Shown piece after piece: positions 38,112-49,957 of a stretch of DNA of 64,000 nt. How positions within the stretch are numbered: position 1 is the stretch's first letter; the number at the start of each line of letters is the position of its first letter. Source of the DNA: an uncultured Bacilli bacterium (GTDB lineage Bacteria > Bacillota_I > Bacilli_A > RF39 > UBA660); assembly GCA_934096705.1 (NCBI GenBank), contig CAKOMR010000007.1, forward strand, positions 690 to 64,689, written 5' to 3'. The translations under genes were made by a program, and so were the position numbers. The notes beneath the pieces are model-generated. The model had not been told where the DNA came from and did no database searches. It saw only the letters and a list, made by a program, of their open reading frames with translations.

Positions 38112-38512
38112 TTTTCAGCCTTTCTCATTATTTGCATTAATGTATTATCCATTTTAACAGGACTAATATAAATTTCTTTTCCATTTTTAAGTTTCAAAGC
38201 TATTCTTTTGTAAGAAGTTGAATAAAATGGATTTATATTGCTTACTATAAAGCATTTTTTTATTTGTTTATATGGAATAACTTTTTTTATAAAACCTGCT
38301 CTAATTGTAATACTTTTTTCATTAATTCTATAAACTCTAAAATAAAAAAATATTATTAAACCAAGAACAATTATTAAAAAAATTAATCCCAAAATAACAT
38401 ATAAAGTGCTAACATGTAAAGATAGTATTATAGAAATAAAAGCTAAACAAACAGTAAAATAAATTCCAAAAAAAACATAATAAAAATTGTCATAATAATT
38501 TTTTATTTTCAT
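38108..38512 (-). CDS. Small membrane protein with a bacterial PH-like domain
   Basis: Two N-terminal TM segments, then KSITIRAGFIKKVIPYKQIKK..., typical of bPH_2-type domains. Confidence 0.45.
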   Translation of the reverse strand: MKIKNYYDNFYYVFFGIYFTVCLAFISIILSLHVSTLYVILGLIFLIIVLGLIIFFYFRVYRINEKSITIRAGFIKKVIPYKQIKKCFIVSNINPFYSTSYKRIALKLKNGKEIYISPVKMDNTLMQIMRKAEK

Positions 38513-39198
38513 TTGTCATCCTTACATCTAATGTTTTCCACATAAAAGTTTCCTGAAAAAGTTTTTCCTTGAATACTTGCTTGTGATTCTGCTAAAATAT
38601 AAAATTTTAAATTAATATTCCAAGATTGAGTTGTACCAGTACCATTTAAATCTTTTATTATTGCATCTTTAACAACAATTTTTTTATAGCCAACATTTTC
38701 AGTTTTTGCGCTCCATGATGAATCATATGCAAAGTTTTTTTCAGTACTGTAATTATTAATGCCAACATTTGTTCCCTTAATTGTTAAAGTTAATTCTTTG
38801 GAACTAGGATTTGTTACTGGAGTTTCAGCATCTCCATAAATCTTGCTATCAACATCATACTCAAATACAATATCATAAGTACAACTATAAGTACTTGAAG
38901 CAGTACCTAAAGTCAAAGTTACATTTAAATTACTGTTACTGTCAGCTACAACATCACCTGCTGAGGCATTTATCATATTTGCAAGCGTAGCATGTAAATC
39001 AAGTGGTGCCGTCGTAGAAACAAACGAAGAAGAAATTCCTGAACCTGTATTTACATTTACAGATGCTTTATTATTTACTCTAGTACTAAACGAACCAAAA
39101 TATGCAAAAGAAGCACCCGCTACAATCGCAAGTAAAAAAATAATTGCAAAAATACTTGTTATATTTACCTTTTTAGTAATTTCATTATTTTCATTCAT
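38509..39198 (-). CDS. YAYF-family protein, close paralogue of 13807..14493
   Basis: ITSIFAIIFLLAIVAGASFAYFGSFSTRVNNKASVNVNTG... Shared blocks are CTYDIVFEYD..IYGDAETPVT and FSGNFYVENIRC, against CTYDIYYQYD..VYGAAATPVT and FAGKFYVKENTVVC in the paralogue. Confidence 0.6.
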   Translation of the reverse strand: MNENNEITKKVNITSIFAIIFLLAIVAGASFAYFGSFSTRVNNKASVNVNTGSGISSSFVSTTAPLDLHATLANMINASAGDVVADSNSNLNVTLTLGTASSTYSCTYDIVFEYDVDSKIYGDAETPVTNPSSKELTLTIKGTNVGINNYSTEKNFAYDSSWSAKTENVGYKKIVVKDAIIKDLNGTGTTQSWNINLKFYILAESQASIQGKTFSGNFYVENIRCKDDK

Positions 39199-42407: not shown

Positions 42408-42965
42408 TTATATTTTATAAAGTTTAGTTTTTTTCTTAGATACTGAATAAACACCAACTCCAAGAACTAAACCAACAGCAATAATAACTATTGGTAAGCT
42501 AGCACCAGTGTCAGGGTTAGTTGTACCTTGAGAACCACCATTTATTACAGCAATACTACAATCTTCTGTACTGTCTTTTGGAACTGTTACAGTAAGTGTT
42601 CCTACTTGGAAATCATTTCCTGTGTCTGAAGAACCATTTTTGTCAAATACACAAGTTATTGTTGTTTCACCATCTGAATTTTTTCCGTTATTTGTAGTAG
42701 TGGCAACAAATTCACCATAGTCTCCACATGTAGCTTCAGTAATAGCTTTGCCTAGTTTAAACTTTACAGTTTTTTTAGTAACTTTTTGATTTTCAGTGTT
42801 ATTTTCTAAAGTTACTCTGATTTTGTATGTTCTTTGTTGATCACCATTATCAAGTTGTTTAGTTGTGTAATCATCTGGAACACTAACTTTTTCAGTTACA
42901 GCATTAACAATTAATGGTAAACAAAACACACCTAAAACTAGTAAATAACTAAAAAACTTTTTCAT
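42408..42965 (-). CDS. Small surface protein with a signal peptide and an NPDTG-type C-terminal cell-wall sorting signal
   Basis: MKKFFSYLLVLGVFCLPLIVNA signal. The C-terminus TTNPDTGASLPIVIIAVGLVLGVGVYSVSKKKTK has the motif, a hydrophobic stretch and a basic tail. Confidence 0.75.
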   Translation of the reverse strand: MKKFFSYLLVLGVFCLPLIVNAVTEKVSVPDDYTTKQLDNGDQQRTYKIRVTLENNTENQKVTKKTVKFKLGKAITEATCGDYGEFVATTTNNGKNSDGETTITCVFDKNGSSDTGNDFQVGTLTVTVPKDSTEDCSIAVINGGSQGTTNPDTGASLPIVIIAVGLVLGVGVYSVSKKKTKLYKI

Positions 42966-43093
42966 CCATCAACTCTCCTATCTTTATTATGACCTAATTA
43001 TATCATAAAATTCAAAAAAACAATATATTTTTAAAAAATTTATATTAAAAAATGTCAACTTGTGTTATCATATTAAATATAAGGTGGATAAAA

Positions 43094-44647
43094 GTGAAGA
43101 TACTAATAAAGATTAAAAACGATAGATTATGTTTTATTAACAAAAAAAAACTTAATATAGAATATAAAAATATGCTTAATACTAATGTAATTAGTAACAA
43201 CGAACTTGTATTTAGTGATGAGTATATTTTGTTAAATCAAAAAATAGTTTGTACATTTTTAAATGAACTTATAAAAACTTATTCTATAACTACTTTATCT
43301 TTTCAAAATATTGAAGTTTTAAATATTATTCTTCCACTTATAAACAAATTCAAAAATATTAATTCTATTTATGTAGAATCTGAGGAAGTAATAAGTTATA
43401 AGCTTTGTGAAAAATTAAGAAAATTAAATGGTTTAAAATTTATAAGTTTTGAATACATTCCAGTATATATGTTTGAACTACTTGATAAGTATGGTATTAT
43501 TCCAGAATCAAGAAGTGAAATATTATTTACATCAAACTTTATGCAAACTAATAATCTAAAAACATATTCTCAATTATTTTATAAAAATAATATATATTTA
43601 CAGTTTCCATTATCAACTGAAGATATTCAAGATTTTAATGCATTTTGTGATATTAATAGACATCTTAAAGTAATTCATATAAATAAAATTAATAAAGTAA
43701 ATTTAGAACAAATAATCTATATTTTAAAAGAAAATAATCAAAAAAATATTAAAATAATTTTACATGGTGATGAACATGATGAAAATGTCATTGAATATTT
43801 AAGAAAAAACAATAAAATAATTAAGAAAAAATATAAAATTTCATTTAAATTAAAATATTCAGACAAATATATTGAAGACAACATTGTTAAAGAAACTAAC
43901 AATGGAATATTAAGAATGTGTGGTCTTTTAATACTACTTATTGTTGCATTTTCTTTTATCTATGTTTTTTATGATAACTATACTTCAATGATGAAAGTAA
44001 GTAAAATTCAAAAAGAAGTTACTAAATATATTGAAGAAAAAGAAGTCAAAGAAGAAATTAAAACCGTAAAAACATTAAATGGTATAGAAATTAAGAATAA
44101 TTATATTTACTCTCTTACAGAGATTAATCCTGATGTTGTTGGTTGGTTAAAAGTAAATAATACAAATATAGATTATGCTATTACACAAACTCTTGATAAT
44201 GATTATTATTTAAATTATAACTTATATAAGAAAAAAGATAATAATGGTTGGCTATTTATGGACTATGAAAATAATATTACTCACACTGATGATAACATAA
44301 TAATTTATGGTCACAATAGATATTTAAATGGTGTAATGTTTGGCACACTTAATAAAACCCTTTATAAAGATTGGTATACAAATAAAGAAAATCAAATCAT
44401 AAGACTCGACACTTTATATAATTCTTATAAATATCAAGTATTTTCTATTTATATAGTACCTACTACAAATGATTACTTAACAGTTAATTTTGATGATGCT
44501 AAGTCAAAGATGGAATTTTTAGATAAAATAAAAAATCGTAGTATTTACGATTTTAATATCACACTTGATGAAAATAGTAAAATACTTACACTTTCTACTT
44601 GTCAAAGTGAAACAACTAGACTTGTTCTTCATGCAGTACTTGTTTAA
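43094..44647 (+). CDS. Class-B-like sortase with a ~275-aa N-terminal cytoplasmic extension
   Basis: C-terminal domain: INPDVVGWLKVNNTNIDYAITQ, IIIYGHN, LTLSTCQ (catalytic Cys) and TRLVLHA (Arg). A single TM LLILLIVAFSFIYVFY is preceded by a K-rich segment. The GTG start at 43094 is preceded by AAGGTGG; the track's ATG at 43052 is in frame upstream. Confidence 0.8.
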   Translation: MKILIKIKNDRLCFINKKKLNIEYKNMLNTNVISNNELVFSDEYILLNQKIVCTFLNELIKTYSITTLSFQNIEVLNIILPLINKFKNINSIYVESEEVISYKLCEKLRKLNGLKFISFEYIPVYMFELLDKYGIIPESRSEILFTSNFMQTNNLKTYSQLFYKNNIYLQFPLSTEDIQDFNAFCDINRHLKVIHINKINKVNLEQIIYILKENNQKNIKIILHGDEHDENVIEYLRKNNKIIKKKYKISFKLKYSDKYIEDNIVKETNNGILRMCGLLILLIVAFSFIYVFYDNYTSMMKVSKIQKEVTKYIEEKEVKEEIKTVKTLNGIEIKNNYIYSLTEINPDVVGWLKVNNTNIDYAITQTLDNDYYLNYNLYKKKDNNGWLFMDYENNITHTDDNIIIYGHNRYLNGVMFGTLNKTLYKDWYTNKENQIIRLDTLYNSYKYQVFSIYIVPTTNDYLTVNFDDAKSKMEFLDKIKNRSIYDFNITLDENSKILTLSTCQSETTRLVLHAVLV

Positions 44648-45704
44648 TAATTTTATTGTTATTTAATATTCTTTCATTACTTGATAAAGATATTGCTATA
44701 TTACTATATTTTAAAGCAATATCTTTTTTATTTAAATAAAAAAGTATTACCGCATATAAATCATATATTTCTCCATTCCAAGCAAATGGTTCATTTATAT
44801 AACTTTTACTTCTTTCTTTAATTAAGAAGGCTTTATTAAGAAGATCAAGAGCTATTTCATATTTTTTATCATTATAATATAGACTTGCAAGTTCCACATA
44901 AGGCTCTCTTAAATATGGAGATTCATTGATTGCCTTATTAAACCAAAATATAGCCTCATCTTTATAACCAACTTTCTGATAACATCTTGCCATAAATCTC
45001 ATTGATGCACTTCTTTCATCTTTCCAAACACTATTTTTACAATTTAGATGTCTATGAAACATTTTAATTGCTTTCATATTTTGATTATGATACATATATT
45101 CTCTTGCTAAATAATGAAGATTTCTATCATCATCTGGAGACTCCTTAACACTTAATTTTAAAAGTGGCAAATAATTACTTCTGGATTTTGATTTATCTTG
45201 ATAATGATTTAAAGTTATACCATCAATTAATAAAATCTTTTCTTCTTTCAATGGATGCAAAACTTCATGAACTGGATGAGTCCAAACATAATCTTTTGTA
45301 TGAATCTTATCTAAATAAAATGTTGTTGCAGGTTTGCCTTTCTCATCAAACGACCAATTATATAAATATTTAACTCTTGTATAAGATTTATCATAGTATT
45401 TTTCTAATTTTTTTCGCCATCCTTTATTAAAACGTTCATCTAAGTCAGTACACACATATAAATCATATTTTTTCTTAATCATTTTAAAAGACTCATTTCG
45501 TGCATTATCAAATCTAAATGGAATAATTTTTTTACTTTTTACATAAATATTTAAAGATTTTAATATTTTCACACTATTATCACTGCTTCCAGTATCAAGA
45601 ACATAAATAGCATCAGCTTCTTTCATACTCTTATACCATTTTATAATATTTTTTTCTTCATTTTTACAAATTGCATAAACACAAATTTTTATATTAATCA
45701 CCAA
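44616..45704 (-). CDS. Family-2 glycosyltransferase fused to TPR repeats
   Basis: N-terminal ICVYAICKNEEKNI...YVLDTGSSD...CTDLDE (GT-A DxD), then TPR-like repeats (ARCYQKVGYKDEAIFWFNKAI...). Confidence 0.7.
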   Translation of the reverse strand: MVINIKICVYAICKNEEKNIIKWYKSMKEADAIYVLDTGSSDNSVKILKSLNIYVKSKKIIPFRFDNARNESFKMIKKKYDLYVCTDLDERFNKGWRKKLEKYYDKSYTRVKYLYNWSFDEKGKPATTFYLDKIHTKDYVWTHPVHEVLHPLKEEKILLIDGITLNHYQDKSKSRSNYLPLLKLSVKESPDDDRNLHYLAREYMYHNQNMKAIKMFHRHLNCKNSVWKDERSASMRFMARCYQKVGYKDEAIFWFNKAINESPYLREPYVELASLYYNDKKYEIALDLLNKAFLIKERSKSYINEPFAWNGEIYDLYAVILFYLNKKDIALKYSNIAISLSSNERILNNNKIIKQVLHEEQV

Positions 45705-45789: not shown

Positions 45790-46836
45790 TTAATCAAATG
45801 TACAATCAAATTTTAGTTTGTTTCTATAATAGTTACTTATCTCATTATATGATGTAGGAAACGAACTTCCGTATTCTTGATCTAAAATATCGCTTTGAAG
45901 CATTTTAACTAAAGTTATAGTTCTTTTAGAATAATCTATTAAAGCATAACCCTTATCATCATCAATAGAAAGAATTCCATTATCTATTTTGCTTATCATA
46001 TCATTTAATTCAGTATCACTATTATATGTATATATATTCATTCTGACAGATTTATTTATATTTTCTTTGTTTGAATCGAACAAAGTTTTATCAACGACTT
46101 TTCCATCAGGACTTTGACAACTAAATTTAATTTTTGGTTCACTATCAATTACATAAATAAATGATGTATATGTTTTTTCAACATTATTTGCATCAGTTAC
46201 TTTTATATTTATACTTTGAATACCTAAATCATTAATAATAGACTTAGCCTCTTCTTTATCAGCAAAAGCATAAGTATATTTTTCATCAGATGAAATAAGT
46301 CTTTCCGGATTTATTTCACTACCTTTAGTTAAATAAACAAATTCATTTTTGATTTTAAATTCATTTTGCGAAGATGTATTGTCACCGTTTTCGCCTTCTA
46401 CTACTATTACTTTTGCAGTATATTTTGAAGTACTACAAACAACATAATATGGATAGGTTCCAGCTTTCGAAGTATCAACTTCGTTTGTATTTAACTTGCA
46501 ATTTGTAATATCCAAATTAGAAAAGTTTCCATATTCGTTTAAACTTGAAGATAATTTATCACCAACTTTTATTGTTATATCATTTAATAAAAATGTTGGA
46601 GTTGAATTTTGATTATTTTTATTTTTTGCAAGATTCAAGTAATAATAAACTCCAAATGCTACGCCACCCATCAACATTAATATAAGTAAAATAAATAATA
46701 CTTGTTTTATTAAACTGGGTTTCTCTTTTTGTGGTTTATTATTGTTTGGCTTTTCTTCATTCTTTTTTTCAGGTAGAACGTCAAGTGAATCAATAACCTC
46801 TACTAAAGTTGGATCTGTACCAATTTCATTTCTCAC
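45790..46836 (-). CDS. Hypothetical type II membrane protein with a large extracytoplasmic domain
   Basis: A cytoplasmic K/P/E-rich N-terminus, TM VLFILLILMLMGGVAFGVYYYL, then a beta-rich ectodomain. A terminator hairpin GTAGCAT/ATGCTAC lies at its 3' end. Confidence 0.45.
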   Translation of the reverse strand: MRNEIGTDPTLVEVIDSLDVLPEKKNEEKPNNNKPQKEKPSLIKQVLFILLILMLMGGVAFGVYYYLNLAKNKNNQNSTPTFLLNDITIKVGDKLSSSLNEYGNFSNLDITNCKLNTNEVDTSKAGTYPYYVVCSTSKYTAKVIVVEGENGDNTSSQNEFKIKNEFVYLTKGSEINPERLISSDEKYTYAFADKEEAKSIINDLGIQSINIKVTDANNVEKTYTSFIYVIDSEPKIKFSCQSPDGKVVDKTLFDSNKENINKSVRMNIYTYNSDTELNDMISKIDNGILSIDDDKGYALIDYSKRTITLVKMLQSDILDQEYGSSFPTSYNEISNYYRNKLKFDCTFD

Positions 46837-48205: not shown

Positions 48206-49957
48206 TTATTTAAGCACTGCTTTAATACGTCTAACGCCTGCGGAAGAACTTTCTTCTTTAACTATTTTGAATTCTCCAAGTTTATTAGTATTTTCAACAT
48301 GTGGTCCCATGCAAATTTCTTTTGAAACATCTCCTATAGAGTATACTGTTACAATATCAGGATATCTTTCTATAAACATTGCTTCAGCACCAGTTTTTAC
48401 AGCTTCCTCTTTTGGCATTTCTTTAATAGTCACAGGTAAACTTTCTTTTATCCATTTATTAACTAAATCCTCTGTATTTTGAATTTCTTCTGGGGTAAGT
48501 TTATGATCACAACTAAAATCAAAACGCATTCTTTCATCAGTTATATTACTACCTTTTTGGTGAACATTTTCTCCAACAGTAATTTTTAATGCAGCATTAA
48601 GTAAATGGGTTGCTGTATGGTATTTAGTTTCGATTTCGGTATTACCTGCAAGGCCACCTTTAAATTGTCCACTTGAGGCAGTTCTCGATAAATTTTGATG
48701 CTCTTTAAATTTTTCATTAAAGCCTTTCTCATCAACACTTAATCCTTTTTCACTAGCAAGTTCCATAGTAAGTTCTATTGGAAAACCAAATGTATCATAT
48801 AAGTGGAAAGCTGTTGATCCATCAATATTTTCATTATTACTTGTAATTTTAGAAAATTCTCTTAGCCCCTTTTCAAGTGTTTTATTAAATTTTTCTTTTT
48901 CGTTTTTTAAAACTTCATAAACTACATTTTCATTTTTAGCAACTTCTTCATAATATTTAGAATATTTGCTAATAATTAAACTTGCTATTTTTCTTTCCCA
49001 ATCACTATTTATATCAATACCTAAATTCTTAGCATGTCTAATAGTTCTACGAATAAGTCTTCTTAAAATATATCCCTGTCCTACATTTGAGGGTTTTATG
49101 CCAGCTTCATCAGCTGAAATAAATACAGATGTTCTAATATGATCTGCTATAATACGCATTGATTTTTCATTACCTTCATAACTTTTGCCAGATATTTCAC
49201 TTATCAAAGTAATAACATCTTTCCATATTGAAGATAAATAATTATCATTTACGCCCTCTAAAATTGCGGTTGTTCTTTCAACGCCCATTCCAGTATCAAC
49301 ATTCTTTTTTGGTAATAGTTCAACTTTCCCGTCCGCATCTTTATTATATTGCATGAATACATCATTCCATATTTCAACCCATCTTTCATCTTCAGGATCA
49401 AATTTTTCAGGAATTACATCATTACTTCTAAAGTAAAACATTTCTGTATCTGGTCCACAAGGTCCAGTTTCTCCAGCAATCCAGAAATTATCTTCCGTAG
49501 TTTTAGCTATTCTTTCCTCTGGAATACCTAAAGATAGCCAAAGGTTATAACTTTCCTCATCAAAAGGAATAATGTCATTCCCGGCGAAAACAGTTACTGC
49601 AAGCCTTTCAACAGGAATATTTAGAATTTTTGTTAAAAATTCAAAACTCCAATTAATAGCATCTTTTTTAAAATAATCACCTAAAGACCAATTTCCAAGC
49701 ATTTCAAAAAAAGTATGATGATATGTATCACCAATAACATCTAGGTCATTTGTTCTAATACATTTTTGTGCATCACAAAGCCTTGTTCCATAAGGATGTT
49801 CTTTTCCCATTAAATACGGAATAAGAGGTTGCATTCCCGCAGTATTAAATAAAACTGATGGGTCGTTTTCAGGAACTACAGGGGCACTTGGAATAACTTT
49901 ATGACCCTTAGATTCGAAAAAATCAAAATATAAATCTTTTAAGTTAATTTCTTTCAT
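48206..49957 (-). CDS. alaS: Alanine--tRNA ligase, short form (583 aa) ending right after the editing domain
   Basis: FFESKGHKVIPSAPVVPENDPSVLFNTAGMQP, FFEMLGNWSLGDYFK and GPCGPDTEMFY. Editing-site motifs HTATHLLNAAL and CMGPHV. The protein ends ...SAGVRRIKAVLK, with no C-Ala/DHHA1-like region. Confidence 0.9.
   Translation of the reverse strand: MKEINLKDLYFDFFESKGHKVIPSAPVVPENDPSVLFNTAGMQPLIPYLMGKEHPYGTRLCDAQKCIRTNDLDVIGDTYHHTFFEMLGNWSLGDYFKKDAINWSFEFLTKILNIPVERLAVTVFAGNDIIPFDEESYNLWLSLGIPEERIAKTTEDNFWIAGETGPCGPDTEMFYFRSNDVIPEKFDPEDERWVEIWNDVFMQYNKDADGKVELLPKKNVDTGMGVERTTAILEGVNDNYLSSIWKDVITLISEISGKSYEGNEKSMRIIADHIRTSVFISADEAGIKPSNVGQGYILRRLIRRTIRHAKNLGIDINSDWERKIASLIISKYSKYYEEVAKNENVVYEVLKNEKEKFNKTLEKGLREFSKITSNNENIDGSTAFHLYDTFGFPIELTMELASEKGLSVDEKGFNEKFKEHQNLSRTASSGQFKGGLAGNTEIETKYHTATHLLNAALKITVGENVHQKGSNITDERMRFDFSCDHKLTPEEIQNTEDLVNKWIKESLPVTIKEMPKEEAVKTGAEAMFIERYPDIVTVYSIGDVSKEICMGPHVENTNKLGEFKIVKEESSSAGVRRIKAVLK

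Follow-up and report, generated by a model that had tools for sequence, protein, structure and literature searches.

The window analysed here, a 64,000-nucleotide stretch of DNA from an uncultured Bacilli bacterium (contig CAKOMR010000007.1 of assembly GCA_934096705.1, positions 690 to 64,689; GTDB lineage RF39, UBA660), carries the gene of a long class B sortase and, beside it, the gene of a small surface protein with an NPDTG sorting signal. Almost certainly, the sortase consists of a SrtB domain outside the cell, one membrane helix and a folded domain of 270 residues inside the cell (called the N-domain below), with the NPDTG protein as its adjacent partner. The short cytoplasmic tail of that partner is its most conserved part, and we tentatively propose, at somewhat less than an even chance, that the N-domain docks this tail. 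The window has a G+C content of ~26%; the assembly that holds it, as part of contig 7, measures 1.07 Mb at 91% completeness.

By every feature tested in this analysis, the long protein is a class B sortase. Its residues 276-508 matched TIGR03064, the class B sortase equivalog, with 166.4 bits (cut-off 153.75), and its C-terminus matched the Pfam Sortase family PF04203 with an E value of 1.4e-13 (51.1 bits; cut-off 26.6). An earlier reading of this DNA, made from the letters alone (the sequence-only reading), had recognized a class-B-like sortase there by the motifs VGWLKVNNTNIDY, YGHN, TLSTC and TRLVLHA, all of which are present. Among 63 family members, conservation at the catalytic His, Cys and Arg reaches at least 90%. 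When compared with the PDB, the profile of the long-sortase family matched the SrtB enzymes of Bacillus anthracis, Staphylococcus aureus, Clostridioides difficile and Listeria monocytogenes (E 1e-64 to 1e-56), with 2oqw, 1ng5 and 4ux7 among the structures found (E 1e-64 to 1e-58). The open frame that contains the gene spans 43052..44647 (+), and the GTG at 43094 is the likely start because the Shine-Dalgarno-like AAGGTGGA stands 5-6 nt ahead of it.

Hydropathy analysis of the long sortase found a single hydrophobic helix at residues 271-296 (mean of up to 2.52 in a 19-residue Kyte-Doolittle window) and no N-terminal signal peptide. Because there is only this helix, no signal peptide precedes it and the sortase domain must act extracytoplasmically, residues 1-270 are predicted to lie in the cytoplasm. 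The sequence-only reading had placed them on the same side by the positive-inside rule, starting from a Lys-rich stretch immediately before the helix. That ~270 residues precede the sole transmembrane helix, on its predicted cytoplasmic side, is upheld, but the placement rests mainly on the known site of action of the enzyme and not on that rule: the Lys-rich stretch covers residues 237-257, ends 13 residues ahead of the helix and lies within the folded domain, while the 19 residues directly N-terminal of the helix carry a net charge of ~-1, so that this flank is not markedly basic.

The fusion is real and under selection. Its frame is uninterrupted, and a single frame without stops is kept in 67 further genomes and recurs among database proteins by the hundred. 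The N-domain shows the evolution of a translated sequence, with 23-77% identity, conserved motifs and a confidently predicted fold. These observations make it hardly credible that we are dealing with an annotation artefact, in which two genes or a frameshift were joined by chance or only a short sortase is translated from an internal start. An in-frame ATG (Met274) just ahead of the membrane helix would suit the latter, but this candidate was rejected, as it has no Shine-Dalgarno sequence and is missing in many relatives. Separate genes, a frameshift or an internal start, which the sequence-only reading had named among the outcomes that would overturn it, were thus not found.

Using the 63-sequence alignment, AlphaFold2 modelled the N-domain with confidence (pLDDT 89.6, pTM 0.78) as a beta hairpin followed by 8 or 9 strand-helix units with a period of 20-30 residues. 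The predicted strands start at residues 37, 67, 91, 116, 136, 166, 193, 219 and 249, each being followed by a helix, and a helix predicted at 257-269 leads straight to the membrane segment, which starts at 271. Conservation is highest at N29-T30-N31, I33, F40, Y44, N48, F55, F149, N153, F184, N188, I194, Y255 and Y259. The NTN...F...Y stretch lies in the least confident part of the model, which would fit a segment that becomes ordered upon binding.

The resemblance of this extension to leucine-rich repeats (LRRs), which had been suspected from its periodicity, was borne out by the strand-helix units of the model but not by family profiles. None of the LRR families of Pfam matched any of the 63 members at E <=1, nor did any Pfam or NCBIfam family match residues 1-270 in any of them. 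A sequence-profile search of the PDB gave nothing for residues 1-270 beyond ANP32A (E 0.48) as an LRR hit, and the leads from a protein atlas stayed below its threshold (0.83; LRR_4 and FNIP clusters). Foldseek comparisons with the PDB reached TM-scores of only 0.2-0.3, with LRR, TIM-barrel and Rossmann folds mixed, and each match spans one half of the model (~6-141 or 145-260). LRR scaffolds that bind peptides or proteins are among the closest structures. The architecture resembles the LRR domains of F-box and NLR-type proteins (COI1, 3ogk; SKP2, 8cdj; Dia2, 7pmk; NLRP1, 7wge; ribonuclease inhibitor, 2bex), though with no sequence relationship, over half of the model, and with TIM-barrel and Rossmann-type proteins matching nearly as well; enolase-type barrels and Rossmann-like folds lie within one Z unit of the LRR matches. 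A closed TIM barrel was considered and is unlikely, abundant barrels having matched poorly. The model thus suggests an LRR-like strand-helix solenoid without an assigned family, by likeness of architecture and not by membership.

In the order to which the window belongs, the long sortase was found as a single frame of 516-592 aa, one copy per genome, in 68 of the 201 genomes sampled (36 of 98 genera). With a profile of the N-domain, it was detected in 14 of the 49 genomes from the window's own family, while 350 genomes covering 29 further families of Bacilli gave no match. When residues 1-270 alone served as the query, 255 clusters at 90% identity were returned, nearly all of them 516-558 aa long and carrying the sortase domain; if a source gives them a name, it is just "class B sortase", from uncultured Bacilli, "Mollicutes" or Candidatus Coprovivens. 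An exhaustive HMMER scan of 1.84 billion representative proteins gave 160 clusters at 50% identity with the N-domain (E <=0.001), in which N-domain identity falls to 23-28% with length and layout unchanged; no other convincing domain combination was seen among these 160 clusters. In a quick maximum-likelihood tree of the catalytic domains, 52 long and 17 short sortases of the same family are split by one change (SH-aLRT 69, a weak value). This tree is compatible with a single origin of the fusion without proving it.

The N-domain and helix also occur without a sortase domain. One genome (G049) encodes such a protein of 289 aa (L041:3523-4392, G049:C6), whose frame stops right after the helix; a sortase remnant was sought downstream of it and not found. 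Several database proteins of 279-301 aa have the same form, most of them ending a few residues past the helix. Read by eye, with no family search, the surroundings of the G049 copy comprise mraZ and rsmH upstream and a gene for a PrsA-like foldase lipoprotein downstream.

Two other SrtB enzymes of the same bacterial family carry N-terminal extensions ahead of a single helix that do not match the N-domain profile, one of at least 495 aa (L069, G570:C25) and one of ~160 aa (L082, G568:C47). In this lineage, the fusion of sortases to cytoplasmic modules may thus be more widespread.

The neighbouring gene encodes what the sequence-only reading had described, a divergently transcribed secreted protein of 185 aa with NPDTG, a hydrophobic helix and a KKKTK tail. 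The protein begins with a signal peptide (MKKFFSYLLVLGVFCLPLIVNA...) and ends with NPDTG, a hydrophobic stretch of 17-21 residues and KKKTKLYKI; around the sorting motif it reads GTTNPDTGASLP. The gap between the two genes had been put at 86 bp, which is the distance to an upstream ATG at 43052; from the GTG at 43094 it is 128 bp. A promoter and terminator scan of this intergenic region did no better than shuffled sequence (26 sites, 23 expected; the DNA is AT-rich). The AlphaFold2 model of the substrate (pLDDT 78) is a nine-strand beta sandwich. Foldseek matches of its ectodomain to cohesin modules are weak (E 2e-3 to 4e-2, target-normalised TM-score 0.35-0.55), and CLIPPER, YcnI, pilin and CBM domains rank beside cohesin among these weak matches. 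The NCBIfam model NF033846 (NPXTG-anchored protein domain) scored below its cut-off (18.0 against 23.5 bits, E 0.0025); the signal is related to the model without being a member of it.

An orthologue of the substrate (~150-230 aa) adjoins the long sortase in 27 of the 38 loci of relatives, namely 17 of 19 in close relatives and 10 of 19 in distant relatives. Divergent transcription is the usual arrangement; in some loci the gene lies directly upstream on the same strand, and often it stands between the sortase and lysS. In searches with a whole-protein profile of the substrate, only matches reaching the C-terminus of the model were counted, since in genomes lacking the long sortase the profile also picked up N-terminal parts of larger, unrelated proteins. 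No substrate of this kind was detected in G049, the genome with the sortase-less form.

In an alignment of 19 neighbouring substrates, the proteins are 18-30% identical to the window copy (67% for the orthologue of the same genus), and conservation is concentrated at the end. The invariant residues are mostly in the sorting signal (G154, P158, K181 and Y183); T153 is nearly invariant, and the C-terminal I185 is at least 90% conserved. The tail thus ends with K-L/M-Y-K-I-COOH. The Pro of "NP" can be replaced, as relatives with TKTG, KQTG and QTQTG occur. Mean pairwise identity is 23% in the ectodomain, 33% in the membrane helix, 57% in the motif, 66% in the last ten residues and 84% in the last five. 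The Tyr and Ile codons of the tail vary synonymously; therefore, the constraint acts on the protein.

A strict DNA pattern for this kind of signal (TG-x-x-h-P...K-h-Y-K/R-h-stop) was found in 25 of the 68 genomes with a long sortase, one hit (G044) looking spurious, and in none of the 133 genomes without one; a reversed control pattern gave no hits. In distant clades of the long sortase, the neighbouring proteins end in KIYHI, KKFHNV, SKF(N/R)NI, KKKK(F/Y)I, KFPQA, KFQKSV or KKNYIR; in every case an aromatic residue comes after basic residues and stands one to four positions ahead of the final one. The NPxTG-type signals from genomes without the long sortase are mostly NPKTGD, with the ends RRKQTN, KKIRQN, KKMHA, KKRFN and KKRYN, and this "TGD" class is also present in genomes that have the long sortase. 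Phe or Tyr occurs within the last five residues of all 30 signals adjoining a long sortase, versus 4 of 15 other NPxTG signals (8 of these 15 from genomes without the long sortase), counts that are descriptive, as the relatives are not independent. Two simpler definitions of the classes were dropped: an Asp never following TG, because NPETGD adjoins a long sortase at L031, and any aromatic near the C-terminus as an exclusive mark of long-sortase genomes, which KKRFN and KKRYN refute.

By analogy with its family, the catalytic domain would cleave the sorting signal after Thr and link the substrate to the cell wall. The N-domain would then serve as a docking module for the short cytoplasmic tail of the substrate while the signal helix sits in the membrane, the docked element being a basic stretch and then a Tyr or Phe that stands one to four positions ahead of the final residue (here KLYKI). 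Such docking would keep the right substrates at the long sortase and set them apart from those with NPKTGD, which the short SrtB paralogues of the same bacteria handle. We favour this possibility because the N-domain resembles a repeat scaffold of the peptide-binding kind that ends at the membrane, because the tail is the most conserved element of the substrate and lies on the same side of the membrane, and because the strict tail (...K-h-Y-K/R-h-COOH) was found only in genomes having the N-domain. In a more specific and slightly more doubtful form, recognition could be two-sided, the catalytic domain reading TG-x-x-L-P outside and the LRR-like domain reading the C-terminal tail inside, with its basic residues, Tyr or Phe, 1-3 further residues and the free carboxyl group.

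Several observations weigh against docking. Tail type and sortase clade both follow the phylogeny of the organisms, so that their match is not independent evidence and would be expected by common descent alone. Two signals from genomes without the long sortase, those ending in KKRFN and KKRYN, also have a basic and aromatic end. Some long sortases (L024, L032, L036, L038 and L040) have no neighbouring substrate, and proteins with the N-domain and helix but no sortase domain exist, in G049 and among the database proteins of 279-301 aa.

The last two of these points would fit the main rival explanation, localisation or scaffolding, in which the N-domain binds the secretion machinery, the division apparatus or wall-synthesis enzymes and places the sortase where its substrate emerges, the tail being conserved for another reason such as membrane retention or a third factor. 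LRR-like scaffolds bind many kinds of protein, the sortase-less copy of G049 lies near the genes read by eye as mraZ, rsmH and PrsA-like, and streptococcal and enterococcal sortases are known to be focally localised, with short charged cytoplasmic segments contributing. We nevertheless consider this explanation less likely than docking, as it accounts neither for the conservation of the tail nor for its restriction to long-sortase genomes, and the loci compared showed no conserved neighbour that might encode a partner in the cytoplasm.

The same tail evidence would serve a variant of tail binding in which the N-domain handles the product of cleavage, capturing the leftover helix and tail and either clearing it or signalling that sorting is complete. 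Streptococcus gordonii reportedly senses, within the membrane, the C-terminal peptide that cleavage releases from sortase substrates. Binding before and after cleavage is not distinguished by the present data, but the pair has no conserved neighbour encoding a protease or sensor, and we regard this variant as improbable. Somewhat more improbable, in our view, is a regulatory module that senses a cytoplasmic state or ligand and switches the outer catalytic domain via the helix. Such a role could be read from the way the N-domain ends directly at the helix (257-269 into 271) and from the highly conserved polar motifs (NTN 29-31, N153 and N188), which could form a ligand site; yet family, profile and atlas searches found no similarity to known sensor domains, the neighbourhood holds no regulator or kinase gene, and a single-pass helix is a weak conduit for a signal unless the protein oligomerises.

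Sortases are textbook enzymes and targets for drugs and engineering. In the prevailing view, their substrates are chosen by the catalytic cleft outside the cell, and the tail of the sorting signal is a passive element of retention or stop-transfer. If the N-domain does bind the tail, this would add a new layer to sortase specificity: the charged tail would be a specific address label that routes proteins to one sortase among several paralogues, and the simple pair of domain and peptide might be of use in orthogonal surface display. Across an entire bacterial family, one sortase retains a folded cytoplasmic domain, and its neighbouring substrates retain a near-invariant cytoplasmic tail. Even if no binding occurs, the 270-aa domain is a well-folded module, specific to the family and absent from the domain libraries searched. 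Its hosts are abundant uncultured gut bacteria whose genomes are close to 1 Mb in size, and the genes that remain in such genomes are likely to be important.

Text searches of the literature for sortases with cytoplasmic or N-terminal extensions gave only standard reviews and structure papers. The long sortase shares its catalytic family and the His-Cys-Arg residues with SrtB of S. aureus and of B. anthracis (1ng5, 1qwz, 2oqw and 1rz2; profile E 1e-64 to 1e-60), which act on IsdC with the signals NPQTN and NPKTG, respectively, and it has in common with these pairs an N-terminal membrane anchor and an NPxTG-type signal on a dedicated substrate next door. As far as is known, these enzymes have only a short segment ahead of the membrane anchor, whereas the long sortase adds a conserved, folded cytoplasmic domain of 270 aa. 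The known substrates are haem-binding NEAT proteins, while that of the window is a small beta sandwich that weakly resembles cohesin or Ig domains; many of the orthologous signals of the window family (TKTG, KQTG) do without the Pro of NPxTG, and the substrate tail is strongly conserved. C. difficile SrtB (4ux7, 5gyj; signals SPKTG and PPKTG) has the class B fold in common (E ~1e-58), and the first two motif positions are variable in both systems, but the C. difficile enzyme is not known to have a cytoplasmic domain. We know of no report of a conserved tail in C. difficile SrtB substrates. New in the present analysis are the conservation of the tail, the distinction of two signal classes, the restriction to one family and the forms that lack a sortase domain. 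In B. anthracis SrtB, recognition depends on residues flanking the pentapeptide (PMC11987632), a role that the conserved TG-x-x-L-P of the window family would fit. The features of the locus are listed in Table 1.

Table 1 Positions of the features of the long sortase locus, numbered in the window.
Feature	Positions	Strand	Basis or remark
Substrate gene, 185 aa, beta-sandwich surface protein with NPDTG sorting signal	42408..42965	-	Open frame; AlphaFold2 model, pLDDT 78
Cytoplasmic tail SKKKTKLYKI-COOH, residues 176-185	42411..42440	-	Most conserved part of the substrate
Hydrophobic membrane segment of the sorting signal, residues 159-175	42441..42491	-	Helix 156-179 in the model
Sorting motif NPDTGASLP, residues 150-158	42492..42518	-	Alignment of relatives
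Divergent intergenic region between substrate and sortase genes	42966..43093	.	128 bp
Shine-Dalgarno-like AAGGTGGA	43081..43088	+	5-6 nt upstream of GTG 43094; read from the sequence
Long class B sortase gene, 517 aa and stop	43094..44647	+	GTG start; open frame and translation
Predicted N-terminal cytoplasmic domain, residues 1-270; beta hairpin, then 8-9 strand-helix repeats (LRR-like)	43094..43903	+	
Single transmembrane anchor, residues 271-296	43904..43981	+	Sole hydropathy peak
Sortase catalytic domain, residues ~352-517, with His (YGHN), Cys (TLSTC) and Arg (RLVLHA)	44147..44644	+	PF04203

The genome of the window also encodes other sortases and candidate substrates. On contig 4, a 366-codon open frame (G000:C4:99891-100991) encodes a secreted protein that ends with NPNTGAFYP, a helix and then KNSTNKKALFKRL. 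From its sequence, this NPNTGA...KKALFKRL protein is a candidate for a second substrate of the long sortase, with a tail that would be of a degenerate basic-aromatic type. Contig 3 (G000:C3:51941-56983, loci L002 and L080) encodes two more members of the SrtB family, both of normal length (272 and 246 aa), which flank a 1073-aa gene whose product ends with ...LPPHTTSNG, a hydrophobic helix and RKKEN. By eye, with no family search, the N-terminal part of the 1073-aa protein looks VWA-like. A 276-aa protein encoded on contig 4 (53173-54003) ends with PPHTSSNG...KKKEN. PPHT(S/T)SNG looks like a separate class of sorting signal, possibly pilus-like.

On the other side of the long sortase in the window, a convergent gene (44616-45704, -) overlaps the 3' end of the sortase gene by 32 bp and encodes a 362-aa protein with glycosyltransferase family 2 and TPR parts. 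By C-terminal similarity, this gene appears to follow the long sortase in some relatives (L004, L016, L017 and L025) and not in others. Predicted membrane or secreted proteins of 348 and 229 aa, with no Pfam or NCBIfam family, are encoded at 45790-46836 (-) and 38509-39198 (-). Finally, an alanyl-tRNA synthetase-like frame at 48206-49957 (-) is only 583 aa long, far below the usual bacterial length, and seems to end past the editing domain, which could be a case of reductive evolution in a 1-Mb genome.

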